Source of the DNA: Xanthobacteraceae bacterium
GTDB lineage: Bacteria; Pseudomonadota; Alphaproteobacteria; Rhizobiales; Xanthobacteraceae
Assembly (NCBI GenBank): GCA_041397365.1
Contig: JAWKWT010000012.1
Coordinates: 25,165 to 89,164, forward strand
Reading direction: 5' to 3'
DNA length: 64,000 nt
The position numbers were made by a program, and so were the translations under genes. Shown here piece by piece: positions 23,067 to 31,048 of this stretch (position 1 is its first letter; every line of letters begins with the position of its first letter). The notes under the pieces were generated by a model. It saw nothing but the letters and a program-made list of their open reading frames with translations, made no database searches and was not told the DNA's origin.

Positions 23067-24032
23067 CTATTCCGGCTGGATGCCGGCCGCGTCGAGCGTC
23101 TGCTTGGTCTTGACGCGCTCCTCCGCCAGGAACTTCTCCAGTTCCGCCGGGCCGTAGCCTTTCATCATGATCGAGCCGCGGTCGGCGTAATATTTGATGA
23201 CTTCCGGATCTTTCAGCATGTCCTCCACAGTCGCCGCGAGCTTGTCGACGATCGGCTTCGGCGTGCCGGCCGGCGCCAAAACCAGCGTATAGGCACTGAC
23301 GACCACCTTGTAGCCCTGTTCGACGAAGGTCGGCGTCTTCGGCATGGTCGGCAACCGTTCATTCGCGGCGACGCCGAGTGCGATGGCCTTGCCGTCCTGC
23401 ACTAGCGGCGCGAGGCCAAGCTGATAGTCGATCATCACGTCGATCGAGCCGCCGAGGAAGTCGACCATGGCCTGCGAGCCGCCCTTGTAGGGAATGTGCG
23501 TCAGCTTCATGCCGGCTTCCTTTTGCAGGAGTTCGGCCAGGATGTGATGCGCGGAGCCCTGACCGACGGTCGCGAAGGTCACCTTGTCGGGATTCTTCTT
23601 CGCATAGGCGATCAGTTCGGCGAGCGTTTTGTAGGGCGCGTCGGCGCGCACCGCGATCATCAGCGGCGTGATCGAGACGCCATGCACGGGCGCGAAAGCC
23701 TTCTGCGGATCGAAGGACAGCTTCTTGAACAGGAACGGATAGGTGACGACGACGCCGTTGCTGGCCGTCACCAGCGTGTAGCCGTCCGGCTTGGAATTGG
23801 CGACGAATTCGGCGCCGACGATGCCGCCCGCACCGGCCTTGTTGTCGACGATCACGGACTGGCCGAGCCGCGCGGCCAGCGCCTTGGCGATGGTTCGCCC
23901 GCCCGAATCAGCGATTCCGCCGGCGGGGAAAGGAACGACGAGGGTGATGTTTCTGTCCGGATAGGTTTGGCCCAGCGCCGGCCCGGCGAGCAGCCCCGCC
24001 GCGAGCGCGGCGGCGATAGCGAGATGTCTCAT
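23067..24032 (-). CDS. tripartite tricarboxylate transporter substrate-binding protein (Bug/TctC family)
   Basis: MRHLAIAAALAAGLLAGPALGQTYPDRNITLVVPFPAGGIADSGGR...IPYKGGSQAMVDFLGGSIDV. Confidence 0.88.
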   Translation of the reverse strand: MRHLAIAAALAAGLLAGPALGQTYPDRNITLVVPFPAGGIADSGGRTIAKALAARLGQSVIVDNKAGAGGIVGAEFVANSKPDGYTLVTASNGVVVTYPFLFKKLSFDPQKAFAPVHGVSITPLMIAVRADAPYKTLAELIAYAKKNPDKVTFATVGQGSAHHILAELLQKEAGMKLTHIPYKGGSQAMVDFLGGSIDVMIDYQLGLAPLVQDGKAIALGVAANERLPTMPKTPTFVEQGYKVVVSAYTLVLAPAGTPKPIVDKLAATVEDMLKDPEVIKYYADRGSIMMKGYGPAELEKFLAEERVKTKQTLDAAGIQPE

Positions 24033-24437
24033 GGTTTCCCCCAATTGTTGTTATGACGTCCCTACGCGGGTGAGAGCGCAATGTCTCCCCGCCCGCGGCC
24101 CGGGATGTTCCATTTGTAAGCGATTTCGTTTGGCAGCGGGACGCAGGACTGTTGTGCGTATCCGGCACGGGTGCAGTCGTCGCTGGAACCGGCAAGAATC
24201 CGCAAAGCGGATCGATTGCCCTGATTTCGCCTGCACTTAATCCGCATTTAACCAAAAGCCGCCTTAATGACGCTCTGCGGTTCTGGCAGAGCTGATGCCT
24301 TGGGATGTGTGCTTGGCGACGTGCTTGGGACGTCGCTCCGAAGGGGACCTGCCAGATGGGATTGTGCGCCTGTGAGCCTTCGGCCGTGGCCGAAGGGACA
24401 AGCGGTTGGCGTTCGTCTGAGGTTGCGTTGGGTGAGT

Positions 24438-25511
24438 ATGCGTAAGCGTTCCGGAGCCGCTCCTGCGGCAGGCGATGGTCTGCGTCGGTCGCAGCCGCGC
24501 CGTCGACATCTCTCTGTCCAATCCGTCATCGGTGGCGTGGCGCTAGCGGCGATCGTCTGCGCTGCGGCGGCTGCGGTGTATCCGCATCTCGGCGCGGAGG
24601 CCGATGCCGCCACCGCGCCCGTGGCGCGCGCAAGTTTCGGCGATCGCTTCGGCGCGCTCGGCGGCAGCAGCGTCGTGGTGATGCACAGGCCGGCGCCTGA
24701 GACGTCGCCCGAAATTCCCGACGACGTCCGCCGCGGCTATGCGAAGCTGTTCGATGTGACCGCCTCGCTCGGGCCGGGCGGCGACACCTTCTCGACGGAG
24801 CCGCGCCCGTTCTATGGCCGTCGGCTGGCCAGCCTCGCGCCGGCCGGAAGCGAGGCCATCGCGCCGCCGGATATCGCCAAGCCTTCGGTGCAACTGGCCA
24901 ACACCGTGCCGCTGCCGCTGATGCGCCCGTCGAAACTCGCGCGGCTCGACAATGCGCCGGTCGCCATTCCGAGGACCAAGCCTGCGCCGGCCTCATCAGG
25001 CGCGGACCGGATTTTCGAAAAGCTGTTCGGCAAGCCCCTGAGCGGCCTCGGCACGCTGCTCGCCTACGCGCCGTCCGACGGCGGCATTCTGAGCGACGGG
25101 CAGAGCGCATCGCCGACCGGCCGCTACGACCGCACCACCGCCGTCTACGACATCACGGCGAAGAAGGTCTATCTGCCCGACGGCACCAGACTGGAGGCGC
25201 ATTCGGGCCTGGGTCCGAAGATGGACGATCCGCGCTTCGTGCATGTGAAGATGCATGGCGCGACGCCGCCGCACATCTACGACCTGAAAATGCGCGAGGC
25301 GCTGTTCCACGGCGTCGAGGCGATCCGCCTGCATCCGGTCGGCGGCGCGCAGGCGATCCACAACCGGAACGGACTGCTGGCGCATCCCTATCTGCTCGGC
25401 CCGCGCGGCGATTCCAATGGCTGCGTGTCGTTCAAGGACTACGAGGTGTTCCTGCGCGCCTTCAAGCGCGGCGACATCAAGCGTCTGGCCGTGGTCGAGC
25501 GCGTGGAGTAG
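24438..25511 (+). CDS. membrane-anchored DUF2778 (L,D-transpeptidase-fold, Tlde1-like) domain protein
   Basis: N-terminal TM segment VIGGVALAAIVCAAAAAVY, a Pro/Ala-rich linker, and a C-terminal YLPDGTRLEAHSGLG...IRLHPVGG...NGCVSFKDYEVFLRAF. The family name is from recollection. Confidence 0.65.
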   Translation: MRKRSGAAPAAGDGLRRSQPRRRHLSVQSVIGGVALAAIVCAAAAAVYPHLGAEADAATAPVARASFGDRFGALGGSSVVVMHRPAPETSPEIPDDVRRGYAKLFDVTASLGPGGDTFSTEPRPFYGRRLASLAPAGSEAIAPPDIAKPSVQLANTVPLPLMRPSKLARLDNAPVAIPRTKPAPASSGADRIFEKLFGKPLSGLGTLLAYAPSDGGILSDGQSASPTGRYDRTTAVYDITAKKVYLPDGTRLEAHSGLGPKMDDPRFVHVKMHGATPPHIYDLKMREALFHGVEAIRLHPVGGAQAIHNRNGLLAHPYLLGPRGDSNGCVSFKDYEVFLRAFKRGDIKRLAVVERVE

Positions 25512-25544
25512 GGCGCGACAACCAGCTTCGTGGCCTCGCGAAAG

Positions 25545-25977
25545 CGAGGACGCTTGCCTCGTTCGCGCAAAGAAAACCCGCGCCATTTGCGGGCGTAGTT
25601 GATCGCCCCTGTTGTTTGCGATGGCGCACGCGCGCGAGGCTTGCCTCGTTCGCGCAAGAGAACCCGCGCCACTTGCGGGCGTAGTTGATCGCCCCCGTTG
25701 TTATGACGGCGCACGCGCGCGAGGCTTGCCTCGTTCGCGCAAGAGAACCCGCGCCACTTGCGGGCGCATTTGATCGCCCCTGTTGTTTGCGATGGCGCGC
25801 GCGCGCGAGGCTTGCCTCGTTCGCGCAAGAGAACCCGCGCCACTTGCGGGCATATTTGACCGCCCCTGTTGTTTGCGATGGCGCACGCGCGCGAGGCTTG
25901 CCTCGTTCGCGCAAAGAAAACCCGCGCCACTTACGGGCGTATTTGATCGCCCCTGTTGTTATGATGGCGCGGGGCGC
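25545..25977. repeat. five tandem copies of an ~86-bp GC-rich unit, each with two hairpins
   Basis: Units start at 25545, 25635, 25720, 25806 and 25892 (cgaggcttgcctcgttcgcgcaagagaacccgcgccacttgcgggcgtagttgatcgcccctgttgtttgcgatggcgcacgcgcg). Hairpins are gcgcgagg/cctcg(tt)cgcgc and cccgc-N7-gcggg. Confidence 0.9.
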
Positions 25978-26013
25978 GCCCTTCGTCTTCGGCCCTCGCG
26001 CGAGGCGAGGGGA

Positions 26014-26163
26014 ATGGAGCGCCGGGCGGCGCCGCATTTTGTCTCCGCGCAAGACGCTCCGCGACCGGCGCCGGTGACCGCGAGGCCACAACGCAGCCGC
26101 ATCGCGCCTTTCGGGCGCGGCTGCGTCCCGGCGAAGGACACATGACGCCGCCCGGCGCTCCAT
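26014..26163. repeat. 150-bp palindromic element bounded by perfect 18-bp inverted repeats
   Basis: atggagcgccgggcggcg (26014..26031) is the reverse complement of cgccgcccggcgctccat (26146..26163). Internal 10-bp stem acgcagccgc/gcggctgcgt and palindrome accggcgccggt. Confidence 0.7.
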
Positions 26164-26289
26164 GCGGGGTTTTGGGCGAAGGGGCGTCTCCTGGAGAGCC
26201 CGAGCCTCCGCGCGGACGGCTTGCGAGACCGCCGGCAGACCCGCATCCCGCTCCACCATCAAGACGCCTCTAGACAGCGCCCCTCAATG

Positions 26290-26696
26290 AGTGGGATATG
26301 ATAGGAATATAGTCAGTAGGAATAAATGTCAAGAAGATTGGCCCAAAAACTGGCCTCTATGTCCGATCCCGGTGGGGAGTGTGGAAATATTCTGTCGGCA
26401 CATCTCTTGAATTTTTCGAAAATCATCTCCATCTATTGAAAGCCTTCAGCGCGAGGCTGAAGGGGAAGGTGTTACAACTGTCAAGGCCGACAGCCAAGGC
26501 TGTCAGCTTGACGATCTGAACACTTAGCGTGACAATCATGCTGAGAAAGTGGATCATTGTGATATATCCTTCGTGATTATAGCACACTGTGTTTATTGCG
26601 GACCGGCGATGACAAGCTGAGACTTGGTTGTGTTTCGGAGGGGACATTGGTGGACGCGTACCTGCGCCCCTCCGAACTTGCTACTGGCAAAGCTGA
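26290..26696 (+). ncRNA. candidate structured non-coding RNA / leader upstream of the RT (boundaries unknown)
   Basis: No sense ORF: stops occur in all + frames, with none open beyond ~140 nt. Hairpins at 26443..26463 (8 bp), 26480..26512 (13 bp) and 26636..26674 (8 bp). TAGGAATA is duplicated at 26302 and 26317. Confidence 0.35.
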
Positions 26697-27983
26697 ATGA
26701 CTTTCAAAAAGCGTGTCGTTCGGATTGGCGGTTGGTACGTCAAGAAAAATTTCCCACACTTTGATTTGACGCTTGGCTTTGATCAAGCTCTAGCGCTTGC
26801 ATCAAATCCAGCGCGAGTGTCGGAACATGCCTTCTGGCCGTTTATTGGTTATGTGGATCAAAAAAGAAAATTTTCGAAGCTGAAGAATCGCGCTCCCGAA
26901 GTGTCGAATAAAGAAAGACCGCTTCGATACTGCTCTCACCACGATGGGTACATTCACGCCTATTACGCGAAAAGCTTGTCAGAGCGCTATGAGGTGTTTG
27001 TTCGATCCTATGGCTTGGAGAATGCGGTCATCGGATATCGCAAGGGCCTGGGGACGAATGTTGACCTAGCTAAATCGGCCTTCGACGAAATCAAATTGCG
27101 AGAAACGAGTTGTGTGATCGCGCTCGATATAACGGATTTCTTTGGCTCTATCGACCACCATGTACTCAAGCAAAATCTTTGCGAACTTCTTGAGCAGTCG
27201 CAACTGCCTGTTGATTGGTACAAAATCTATAGGTCAATGACGAAGTTTTCTTGGGTCGAGTTGTCTGAACTCGCGGATCGGCTGGGGTTTGACCAGGATA
27301 AAGTGCCTCGCCCGATTTGTTCGGCTGATAGTTTTCGACAGAAAGTGCGGGGTGGTGATGGCTTGAATTCATCTCTGGTTCGCACAAACGCAAAAGACCA
27401 CGGAATACCGCAGGGTTCGCCGCTTTCGGCGGTTTTTTCAAATGTCTATATGATGCATTTCGATATTGCTTGCTCGAGGGAATTTCACTCGCGTGGTGAT
27501 TTTTATCGAAGATACTCTGATGACATTATTATCATATGCGATGTTGATCGTGCCGGCGAAGCCATCGATTTTGTGGAGCGTCAAATCGCAGATTTGGGTT
27601 CATCATTGAAACTCAACAACGCTAAGACGGAAGTTTCGGTTTTTGAACGCATCGGGCCGGATGTGTTCGTGTGCGATAGGCCAGTCACCTATCTCGGTCT
27701 GACTTACGACGGTAAACGCACACTCCTTCGTGCGCGCACATTATCTCGCTATTACAGACGGATGACTTACGCTGCGCGGCAGGCAATCAGATCGGCAAAG
27801 AAGTCTGAGTCAAAAAAACTTTTTCTGCGGAGTACATACCGAGATCTAACTCATCTGGGGGGCCGCAATTTTTATTCGTATGCGAAGCGTGCGAGTAAGA
27901 CTCTCAAGGATGTTTCCGCTGCTAAGCAACTAAGGCGGCATTTCCCGATCCTGCACCGCAAGTTAAAGACTGGCGGAAAATAG
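26697..27983 (+). CDS. stand-alone reverse transcriptase (UG/Abi / DRT-like class)
   Basis: RT motifs: RPLRYCSHHDGYIHAYYAKSL; ALDITDFFGSIDH (A); GIPQGSPLSAVFSNVYM (B); YRRYSDDIIIICD (C, YSDD at nt 27513..27524); LKLNNAKTEV; YLGLTYDG. Basic C-terminal ~90 aa. Low GC. Confidence 0.9.
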   Translation: MTFKKRVVRIGGWYVKKNFPHFDLTLGFDQALALASNPARVSEHAFWPFIGYVDQKRKFSKLKNRAPEVSNKERPLRYCSHHDGYIHAYYAKSLSERYEVFVRSYGLENAVIGYRKGLGTNVDLAKSAFDEIKLRETSCVIALDITDFFGSIDHHVLKQNLCELLEQSQLPVDWYKIYRSMTKFSWVELSELADRLGFDQDKVPRPICSADSFRQKVRGGDGLNSSLVRTNAKDHGIPQGSPLSAVFSNVYMMHFDIACSREFHSRGDFYRRYSDDIIIICDVDRAGEAIDFVERQIADLGSSLKLNNAKTEVSVFERIGPDVFVCDRPVTYLGLTYDGKRTLLRARTLSRYYRRMTYAARQAIRSAKKSESKKLFLRSTYRDLTHLGGRNFYSYAKRASKTLKDVSAAKQLRRHFPILHRKLKTGGK

Positions 27984-28105
27984 GGTTGAGGCGTGGCGTG
28001 GCCGCTAGACGTAGAACCTAATTTTGCTGTTCAAATGGATTTTCTCCTTCATCCCGATAGGTCAAGGGGGGTCGAGAGAAGCAGAGAACATCGCGTTCGG
28101 TGAAA

Positions 28106-28132
28106 TGAAAAAGGCCCGGATTGCTCCGGGCC
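28106..28132 (-). terminator. groEL rho-independent terminator
   Basis: ggcccgga-ttgc-tccgggcc with a T-run on the minus strand (gaaaaa on plus). Confidence 0.75.
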
Positions 28133-28165
28133 CTTTCCATTTTGCCTTCGCGATGAACCGCTGGA

Positions 28166-29854
<1,689 letters not shown>

Positions 29855-29900
29855 TCAGCGGCGCGCCTCGAAGGGTGACGAATGTGTGTGCGGAAGTGGC

Positions 29901-30215
29901 TTAAGCAGCCTTCTTCTTGGCGGTGACGCCTTCGAGCACGCCGAGAATGTCGCTTTCCTTCATAATCAGGAGGTCCTGATTGTCGATCTTGACCTCGGTG
30001 CCCGACCACTTGCCGAACAGCACGACGTCGCCGACCTTGAGATCGATCGGGATCAGCTTGCCGGCCTCATCGCGGCCGCCCGGACCGACGGCAACGACTT
30101 CGCCCTGCGAGGGCTTTTCCTTGGCCGAGTCGGGGATGATGATGCCGCCAGCAGTTTTCTCCTCGGCATCGATGCGCTTGACGACGACGCGATCGTGAAG
30201 CGGACGAAACTTCAT
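29901..30215 (-). CDS. groES: co-chaperonin GroES
   Basis: [46 protein letters not shown]... Confidence 0.98.
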
Positions 30216-30260
30216 CGCTGTTCTCCTAGATGATTGATAATTCGGGACAATTCGAAACTG

Positions 30261-30287
30261 TTAGCAGTCTGATGACGTGAGTGCCAT
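30261..30287 (-). promoter_or_regulatory. CIRCE-like HrcA operator
   Basis: ttagcagtc-N9-gagtgccat against consensus TTAGCACTC-N9-GAGTGCTAA (8/9 and 7/9). It lies between the promoter and groES. Confidence 0.7.
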
Positions 30288-30300
30288 CAGGCTGAACGGG

Positions 30301-30329
30301 ACATAGGGCAGGTCCCGAAAGCGATCAAG
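30301..30329 (-). promoter_or_regulatory. RpoH (sigma-32)-type promoter of groESL
   Basis: The minus strand reads CTTGat-N-cCCTATgT, which fits the alphaproteobacterial sigma-32 consensus CTTG-N17-18-CYTAT-NT. Confidence 0.55.
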
Positions 30330-30580
30330 GGGATATCAGAAAATTTTGGCACTCGTGAGGGCCGGCTGCCAGATGTTTCGCCAGGAGGTTAACGGGCGAG
30401 GCTCGACACGTAAGGTTGATGCGCAGAAACGCGCATGGCTGACGCGCTTTCGCCGGCTATTGAGGGTCGTGAGCGGCCTGATTATAAGCATGCTTACGAT
30501 CATTGCAGAAGGCTTCGGTTGAGGCCGCGTGTGGCTCGCGCCATGCAAGCGGCTCCCGTTTTCCTCCCGGACCGCACGTC

Positions 30581-31048
30581 ATGGATCACAATCTCAAGAC
30601 TCTCGGTTTTCTCGTGCATGACGTTGCGCGGCTGTTGCGCAAGCGTTTCGAGCAGCACGCGCGCGGCTCGGGCCTGACGCGGTCGCAATGGCAGGTTCTT
30701 GCCTATCTGGAGCGCAACGAGGGCATCCATCAGGGCGGCCTGGCGGAACTGCTCGAAGTCGAGCCGATCACGCTCGGACGGATCGTCGACAGACTGCAAG
30801 AGATGGGGCTCGTCGAACGGCGGCCGCATTCCTCCGATCGCCGCGTGTGGCGGCTGCATCTGACGCCGAAGGCGCTGCCGAAGCTTGCCGAGATCGGCGT
30901 TCTCGGAGAGCGGACCCGCGCGGAGGCGCTGGCGGACATTCCGCAGGCCGAGCGCGAGCAGCTTTTGCAGACGCTGACGCAATTGAAATCGAATCTGGCG
31001 AGCGCATGCGCTGCGCCGGTCGCGCGGGAGCGCGTGAGCAATGGCTAA
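30581..31048 (+). CDS. MarR family transcriptional regulator
   Basis: LTRSQWQVLAYLERNEGIHQGGLAELLEVEPITLGRIVDRLQEMGLVERRPHSSDRR is a winged-helix MarR signature. It overlaps the emrA start. Confidence 0.88.
   Translation: MDHNLKTLGFLVHDVARLLRKRFEQHARGSGLTRSQWQVLAYLERNEGIHQGGLAELLEVEPITLGRIVDRLQEMGLVERRPHSSDRRVWRLHLTPKALPKLAEIGVLGERTRAEALADIPQAEREQLLQTLTQLKSNLASACAAPVARERVSNG

Follow-up and report, generated by a model that had tools for sequence, protein, structure and literature searches.

Which kind of system is encoded by a solitary reverse transcriptase (RT) gene that resides among the housekeeping genes of an alphaproteobacterium, and does the enzyme act without a partner? This question is raised by a low-GC (guanine plus cytosine) islet in a 64,000-nucleotide (nt) stretch of contig JAWKWT010000012.1 from a Xanthobacteraceae bacterium (assembly GCA_041397365.1); the whole stretch is referred to as the window, and positions are given in its numbering. 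A preliminary description of the window had recognized a defence-type, stand-alone RT depending on a non-coding RNA (ncRNA), and this general view is shared here. According to our analysis, the islet represents, with a probability of about 0.88, a complete two-part DRT2 antiphage system (UG2, Class 2 UG/Abi), predicted to consist of a structured ncRNA of ~240 nt and a 428-amino-acid (aa) RT in one transcript unit. The affiliation of the RT with its family, an ncRNA structure that is conserved and covaries, and the geometry of the template were all observed in the locus and in its relatives. The islet is an already characterized type of system and not a novel one.

The RT gene was found to be the sole long open reading frame (ORF) of the low-GC trough, as described before:

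26697..27983, forward strand: drt2 reverse transcriptase gene, 428 aa, catalytic YSDD at 27513-27524

All RT motifs quoted initially were recovered in its translation, with YSDD at residues 273-276. The protein surpassed the cut-off of the NCBIfam equivalog NF041746 (antiviral reverse transcriptase Drt2; 426 bits versus 390) over residues 13-423 of 428, and two Drt2 models of PADLOC matched at E-values of 5.7e-132 and 1e-114, as compared to 2.5e-21 for the best family of another name. Drt2 structures in the PDB (9c0i, 9lje and others) matched residues 13-414 at an E-value of 1e-67, the identity being 33%. RVT_1 was the only Pfam domain of the 428-aa protein, with no maturase, endonuclease or fused effector, and the earlier statement on the first two of these therefore stands. 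Because of the curated profile thresholds and the PADLOC and PDB matches, the RT is assigned, on the grounds of its sequence, to the DRT2/UG2 enzymes and not to an unassigned UG clade. The idea that it may belong to an uncharacterized UG clade was abandoned, since the curated Drt2 threshold was passed and the leader carries the defining template features of DRT2 described below. In total, 958 homologues were detected at E ≤ 1e-10, and those among the best 120 of them that bear a functional name are all called Drt2. An alignment of 35 homologues contained 45 invariant columns, including YSDD.

Another retroelement RT, namely a group II intron, retron, DRT9 (UG28) or Abi-type protein-primed enzyme, would be compatible with several weak secondary profile matches. 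These comprised TIGR04416 for group II intron RTs/maturases (73.5 bits, cut-off 300), the retron St85 profile NF038233 (58 bits, cut-off 235), and the retron RT (E 1.8e-13) and Drt9 (E 1.1e-12) models of PADLOC. The secondary matches, however, remain far below the curated cut-offs and cover only the palm motifs, whereas Drt2 is matched over the full length, and better by more than 100 orders of magnitude. Moreover, neither a group II intron RNA nor an msr/msd RNA was found by Rfam in 24000-31000, and this explanation is effectively refuted. The PADLOC search, which the preliminary description had recommended, thus returned Drt2 as best match instead of a group II intron or retron RT, in line with the earlier statement that the enzyme is neither of these nor linked to Cas genes. 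Of the two architectures named initially, DRT2/UG2 is confirmed, but DRT9/UG28 is not.

DRT9 and DRT10, which are also Class 2 ncRNA-dependent UG RTs, resemble the locus in combining a single RT with an upstream ncRNA and, presumably, in using cDNA (complementary DNA) synthesis as immune output. DRT9 is reported to yield protein-primed poly-dA, and DRT10 protein-primed tandem repeats (PMC12483538; PMC12632851). Unlike DRT9, the window's leader carries a coding template, and the match to the Drt9 profile is ~120 orders of magnitude weaker than that to Drt2.

Two features of the protein had been pointed out initially, namely an insert of ~75 aa that separates motifs A and B, and a Lys/Arg-rich C-terminal tail. 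Both are present, but they fall inside the region over which the protein aligns practically along its whole length with the solved Drt2, in which a finger insertion and an elongated thumb hold the ncRNA (PMC12039810). If, as the alignment suggests, insert and tail are equated with these known features, they are not peculiar to the window's RT.

The features by which DRT2 was recognized were taken from Wilkinson et al. 2024 (PMC12039810) and Tang et al. 2024 (10.1101/2024.05.08.593200), who solved the mechanism in that year. In this system, an ncRNA of ~280 nt upstream of the RT gene possesses a hairpin handle on its 5' side and, on its 3' side, a scaffold made up of tower, buttress and pseudoknot, and its own 3' end serves as primer. 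A central template of ~111-129 nt, bordered on each side by a short repeat (ACA...ACA), is copied repeatedly into concatemeric cDNA, the reverse complement of which contains a stop-free frame, the length of the unit being a multiple of 3. The -35 and -10 elements do not stand in promoter order in the genome and become placed 17 bp apart across the unit junctions, and a ribosome-binding site (RBS) and an ATG follow the -10. The effector Neo, which is encoded by this concatemerized cDNA and is hydrophobic in Klebsiella (PMC12039810), arrests growth (PMC12039810; 10.1101/2024.05.08.593200). The absence of a partner protein, noted in the preliminary description, is therefore true of the genome but misleading with respect to function; the missing partner would be Neo, made de novo from cDNA.

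The region upstream of the RT gene contains the following elements of the predicted ncRNA:

26407..26435, forward strand: putative promoter of the ncRNA-RT transcript, located by eye, with -35 TTGAAT (26407-26412), a 17-nt spacer and a weak -10 CATCTA (26430-26435)
26442..26683, forward strand: DRT2 ncRNA, ~242 nt, with presumed ends
26443..26468, forward strand: 5' handle, hairpin CCTTCAGC-GCGAG-GCTGAAGG (26443-26463), then GGAAG (26464-26468)
26582..26593, forward strand: mini-hairpin, GCAC (26582-26585) pairing with GTGT (26589-26592), its right half being jump repeat 2
26598..26683, forward strand: 3' scaffold with closing helix, short hairpin, tower and tail, based on covariation
26598-26601 and 26678-26681, forward strand: closing helix of the 3' scaffold, GCGG/TTGC, based on covariation
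26604-26607 and 26616-26619, forward strand: short hairpin of the 3' scaffold, CGGC/GCTG, based on covariation
26634-26643 and 26667-26676, forward strand: 10-bp tower, TTCGGAGGGG/CCCCTCCGAA, with tip GGT (26649-26651)/ACC (26660-26662) and invariant loop GACGCG

Nucleotide similarity between the window and L081, the locus of the nearest relative, is confined to 26438-27969, and the conserved module therefore corresponds to the ncRNA and the RT. A TTGAA(N) element was found 29-30 nt upstream of the 5' hairpin in eight relatives, and the TTGAAT of the window, lying at this conserved distance, points to a transcription start near 26442. This promoter position and the start of the L081 similarity at 26438 were used to place the putative 5' end. 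The 3' end, and with it the primer, is likely the conserved CTTGCTA tail ending at 26683, which resembles the G277-C278-N-A280 terminus of the Klebsiella ncRNA (PMC12039810).

The structure of this RNA is conserved. The interval 26440-26686 folds at a minimum free energy of -100.9 kcal/mol (z-score -5.54), which was equalled by none of 200 shuffled sequences, and RNAalifold returned 46 consensus pairs for 11 sequences, 16 of them with compensatory changes. For the 3' domain, a covariance model (R1) was built and 12 sequences were aligned to it; 96.7% of the alignment cells pair, 14 out of 25 pairs show compensatory changes, and 0 of 500 shuffles match these values. Sliding the partners against each other lowered the pairing to 37-54%. 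Furthermore, the stem of the 5' handle covaries (CCCTTGGC/GCCGAGGG in L081, CCGTCGG/CCGACGG in L007) and contributes its last GG to a conserved GGGGAAG, which is completed by GGAAG. In the mini-hairpin, two pairs feature compensatory changes, observed in five and two sequences, respectively.

Within this leader, on its antisense strand, the elements of a neo gene were identified:

26469..26473, forward strand: jump repeat 1, GTGTT, directly 5' of the template; an identical GTGTT pair exists in L081
26589..26593, forward strand: jump repeat 2, GTGTT, exactly 120 nt from repeat 1
26474..26593, forward strand: template, 120 nt, the reverse complement being one predicted neo repeat unit encoding NTVCYNHEGYITMIHFLSMIVTLSVQIVKLTALAVGLDSC
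26479..26484, reverse strand: neo -35, TTGACA (reverse complement)
26576..26581, reverse strand: neo -10, TATAAT, 91 bp on the wrong side of the -35 in the genome
26555..26572, reverse strand: neo RBS GAAGGA (reverse complement of 26567-26572) and in-frame ATG (reverse complement of 26555-26557), read directly

The register of the template is ambiguous within the 5-nt repeat, extending from 26469-26588 to 26474-26593. When the 120-nt unit is joined head to tail, the antisense strand contains one stop-free frame of 40 codons, whereas the other two frames contain 8 and 12 stops per three units. A TTGACA-17-TATAAT promoter (12 out of 12 consensus positions) is formed only across the repeat junction, with the -35 at unit position 109 and the -10 at 132, and the ATG starts 18 nt after the -10 in the open frame. 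A 12/12 junction promoter together with an open frame and a unit length that is a multiple of 3 occurred in one of 5000 shuffled leaders, and in none of 5000 when at least 5 nt of flanking microhomology were additionally demanded. The encoded unit is hydrophobic (grand average of hydropathy, GRAVY, 0.92; 53% I/L/V/F/M/A/C). The earlier statement that the islet harbours no second ORF thus holds for conventional ORFs but misses the antisense 120-nt neo template in the leader. Two units bounded by ACA were rejected: the 138-nt unit ACA(26474)/ACA(26612) is open, but its promoter spacing is 35 nt and it is not conserved in L081, and the 110-nt unit ACA(26474)/ACA(26584) is not divisible by 3 in length.

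A small ORF annotated at window 26423-26557 on the reverse strand (6950-7084 in L082, a metagenome contig with the same locus) is the linear, genome-encoded read-through of the neo frame from the neo ATG up to the first stop past the template. Antisense to the DRT2 leader, hypothetical small ORFs were also seen at the matching position on the reverse strand of L081 (5700-5858), L168 (6738-6857) and L170 (6655-6858). Such ORFs are annotation artefacts of the template in the window's locus, and probably also in these three.

To follow these features beyond a single locus, 80 DRT2 loci from species-representative genomes were fetched, in addition to the metagenomic L081 (RT 76% identical). An out-of-order promoter pair with at least 11 of 12 consensus positions was present on the antisense strand of the leader in 49 out of the 80 loci; among these 49, the unit was divisible by 3 in 44 and stop-free in 43. 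Four controls (sense strand of the leader, downstream, far-upstream and shuffled leaders) gave 2-12 promoter pairs, of which 0-2 agreed with the other criteria. The nine closest relatives, whose RTs are 43-76% identical, all follow this scheme: their units measure 117-129 nt and their Neo units 39-43 aa, and in the latter only the residues forced by promoter and RBS, YN.EG and LD, are conserved.

The closest known systems include annotated alphaproteobacterial Drt2 homologues such as those of Bradyrhizobium sp. sGM-13 (L001) and of the metagenomic P0002 (L081). Their RTs are 60-76% identical, their ncRNA is co-linear and forms the same helices, and they share the 120-nt units and the GT-core jump repeat; they are likewise solitary low-GC islets amid housekeeping genes. 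They differ in their chromosomal sites, and their Neo sequences diverge outside the constrained YN.EG and LD motifs. Rhizobium and Bradyrhizobium homologues of DRT2 are also listed in the supplementary table of Tang et al. (10.1101/2024.05.08.593200).

By analogy with the characterized system, cDNA synthesis, a phage trigger, toxicity of Neo and defence would also be expected for the window's locus. The RT would bind the 5' hairpin and the 3' scaffold of the ncRNA, and synthesis would be primed from the ncRNA's own 3' end. After copying of the 120-nt template 26474-26593, the nascent cDNA end (complement of the first GTGTT) would re-pair with the second GTGTT at the template's 3' end, and repeated rounds of copying would produce a tandem 120-nt concatemer with predicted junctions at GTGTT of the type ...ACAACGTGTT. 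Phage infection would lead to the second strand of the concatemer, in which each junction would create the TTGACA-17-TATAAT promoter, followed by GAAGGA and ATG. Transcription and translation would then give a stop-less, hydrophobic Neo of 40-aa repeats, causing cell arrest in the manner of abortive infection.

The main value of these results lies in the correct annotation of the locus. Describing it as an RT with a non-coding leader hides neo, a predicted effector gene that would exist only after reverse transcription and whose linear antisense frame is wrongly reported by gene callers as a hypothetical small ORF. Moreover, the design of neo (unit divisible by 3, open frame and 17-bp junction promoter) has been kept in high-GC alphaproteobacteria at 33% RT identity to the solved enzyme.

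Compared to Klebsiella pneumoniae DRT2 (KpnDRT2; UG2; PDB 9c0i/9c0j), the window's system appears to be built on the same plan. Both feature an RT-only protein of ~425 aa that can be aligned from end to end, an ncRNA immediately upstream in the same orientation with a 5' hairpin handle, a long 3' tower hairpin and a tail in ...GCNA, a 120-nt template and an antisense frame without stops. Common to both are also TTGACA and TATAAT elements that are genomically out of order and 17 bp apart over the junction, an RBS and an ATG right after the -10, and a hydrophobic 40-aa Neo repeat. In contrast, the window's RT is only 33% identical and has YSDD in place of YCDD, and GTGTT/GTGTT (with a GT core across the clade) takes the place of ACA-1/ACA-2 as jump microhomology, with repeat 2 inside the local mini-hairpin. 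The host is a high-GC alphaproteobacterium in which the locus forms a solitary chromosomal islet. The non-ACA motif, the shorter ncRNA and YSDD are member-level variations.

Several observations weigh against the assignment to DRT2. The Klebsiella-type ACA-1/ACA-2 pair is absent, the ACA at 26474 lacking a partner at +120 and L081 having ACG there. At ~240 nt, the ncRNA is ~40 nt shorter than the 280 nt of KpnDRT2, and the potassium-stabilized pseudoknot of the Klebsiella ncRNA was not identified in it. The -10 of the ncRNA promoter is weak, and a consensus scan did not pick this promoter up. A permissive search of 24000-31000 with Rfam 15 assigned no family to the leader, which is thus without independent RNA-family assignment; apart from weak matches of terminator type at the 3' end of groEL, nothing was returned. 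The neo promoter was scored against an E. coli-type consensus, its use in a high-GC alphaproteobacterial host being an assumption. Finally, AlphaFold2 predicted a moderate-confidence beta array for four Neo repeats (predicted local distance difference test score 70, 40-70 over five discordant models), and this result was not used.

Some of these observations could also be explained by a DRT2-family RT that uses its ncRNA in another way than the Klebsiella paradigm, for example with another jump register, with cDNA that is not concatemeric or with an effector other than Neo. It was noted by Tang et al. (10.1101/2024.05.08.593200) that Neo is harder to annotate in the more divergent DRT2 clades, and alternative mechanisms were suggested there for those without an annotatable Neo; the low RT identity and the missing ACA pair would fit such a case. 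Likewise, the clade-built ncRNA model fails to detect most distant DRT2 leaders: at E < 0.01, R1 recovered only the 11 training relatives and L010, and therefore does not bridge to gammaproteobacterial DRT2 leaders. In a tblastn search of plasmids for the Klebsiella locus, the best match showed 53% identity (Photobacterium). However, all sequence requirements for Neo, that is, unit, frame, 17-nt junction promoter, RBS/ATG and microhomology, are present and conserved in the clade, and under a Neo-independent mechanism there would be no reason for a conserved open frame and an out-of-order promoter. A use of the ncRNA outside the known paradigm is thus considered improbable, and the two-part, Neo-producing DRT2 system is preferred.

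For this DRT2 reading, the jump motif deserves closer consideration. The 5-nt GTGTT repeat, spaced by 120 nt, replaces the ACA pair, and a functional equivalent in the form of flanking microhomology is therefore present. ACA pairs were found in 10 out of 45 loci with open units, and all ten are distant (RTs 33-36% identical to the window's). In the clade of the window, the repeats share a GT core and comprise GTGTT, GTA, GTAA, GCGTAA, GTTATC, GCGT and CGTTG. The jump motif is thus free to change from ACA, and the clade offers a natural set of variants on the requirements of template jumping; pipelines relying on ACA may, as these repeats suggest, under-annotate Neo. For the alphaproteobacterial clade, it is tentatively proposed, at somewhat less than even odds, that rolling-circle template jumping proceeds by lineage-variable GT-core microhomology (3-6 nt) in place of the ACA-1/ACA-2/SL2 signal known to date, with the downstream copy in a covarying mini-hairpin and a shorter scaffold, and that the modules are disseminated as solitary islets lacking an integrase, entering variable slots between genes that also hold other Abi and toxin-antitoxin cargo. 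If true, GT-core jumping would be a mechanistic variant of DRT2 and not a separate system.

The extent of the islet was deduced from its composition:

26270..28100, no strand: low-GC islet, delimited by the GC trough

As stated in the preliminary description, the GC content drops here, reaching 0.46-0.53 across ~26250-28100 (300-nt windows, ~26200-26499 through 27850-28149) versus 0.63-0.73 in both flanks. Neither an integrase nor a conventional second ORF was present in the islet, and no flanking direct or inverted repeats were found at its ends. The outer low-GC parts, 26270-26437 (~170 nt, left) and 27984-28100 (~115 nt, right), are without a notable ORF and conserved in no fetched relative; they may be remnants of the vehicle by which the module was delivered. 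An 87-nt similarity (75% identity) connects the left GC transition (26230-26315) with L002 2525-2607, a segment of another alphaproteobacterial metagenome-assembled genome that is located ~1 kb upstream of its DRT2 ncRNA. The common core consists of CTAGA..GCGCCCCTCAA and ATGTCAAG, and the similarity could be fortuitous, reflect a common regulatory site or mark an old boundary.

A solitary islet devoid of mobility genes in a housekeeping neighbourhood, with outer parts unconserved among relatives, could also be a decayed, inactive relic of a horizontally acquired DRT2 module. Decay is, however, not apparent in the sequence itself. The ORF is intact, the 45 columns invariant across the 35 homologues are all kept (by definition), YSDD among them, and the ncRNA helices, the junction promoter and the open frame are perfect. 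An RT protein identical to that of the window was also detected in five metagenome contigs. An inactive relic is therefore regarded as very improbable.

The gene order around the islet is two TctC genes, a Tlde1_dom gene, the RT, GroEL, GroES, a MarR gene, an RND/EmrA-type protein and an MFS transporter, representing a housekeeping neighbourhood. The neighbours named initially, a DUF2778 gene upstream and groESL downstream on the opposite strand, were found again; the former belongs to PF10908 (Tlde1_dom), which we take to be the family previously called DUF2778. As for the relatives, the preliminary description had proposed to look for homologues in defence islands. Among the loci of the closest relatives examined, neither an integrase nor a defence-island setting was detected. 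In these relatives, too, the low-GC islet stands alone amid housekeeping genes, and its site differs from one relative to the next, such as the following:

FAA hydrolase / AdoHcyase
DUF6636 and a small unannotated ORF (after two GST genes) / acetyltransferase
UvrB / unannotated small ORFs
TauE / CTP synthase
unannotated ORFs / amidohydrolase

To characterize the insertion site of the islet, related metagenome contigs were inspected. The convergent Tlde1-groEL pair is kept in ~22 of them, none with the RT, and the intergenic gap varies between 265 and 3789 nt. In L116 (1164-3408), this slot is occupied by another low-GC islet of two genes, an HEPN_AbiU2 gene (E 5.7e-24) and a gene for a 332-aa protein without a Pfam or PADLOC match. 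A precise empty site was not found: the look-up of the exact GroEL protein returned the same contig only, and the metagenome scan with Tlde1 gave relatives at 44-71% identity. HigB-like and HigA-like ORFs were recognized by eye in the slot of L150 (4054-5670) and L143 (6948-8266), and a 183-aa ORF, GNAT-like by eye, in that of other contigs. The slot appears to be a small variable spot, and the presence of another abortive-infection islet and, by eye, of toxin-antitoxin-like ORFs fits a defence role of its cargo.

Two further observations concern the surroundings of the islet. On the reverse strand, 28102-28170 covers the groEL terminator hairpin (28103-28142) and gave a sub-threshold match to the small RNA family BjrC68 (19.4 bits, gathering score 39), which fits a Bradyrhizobiaceae-like host and is no evidence of a small RNA. 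Between the Tlde1_dom gene and the islet, a GC-rich unit of 86 nt is repeated in tandem (25552-25979; 4.7 copies, 92% match), and long spurious ORFs cross this array on both strands. In L082, the array is 171 nt shorter, corresponding to two fewer copies, and the copy number of the 86-nt unit therefore differs between samples.

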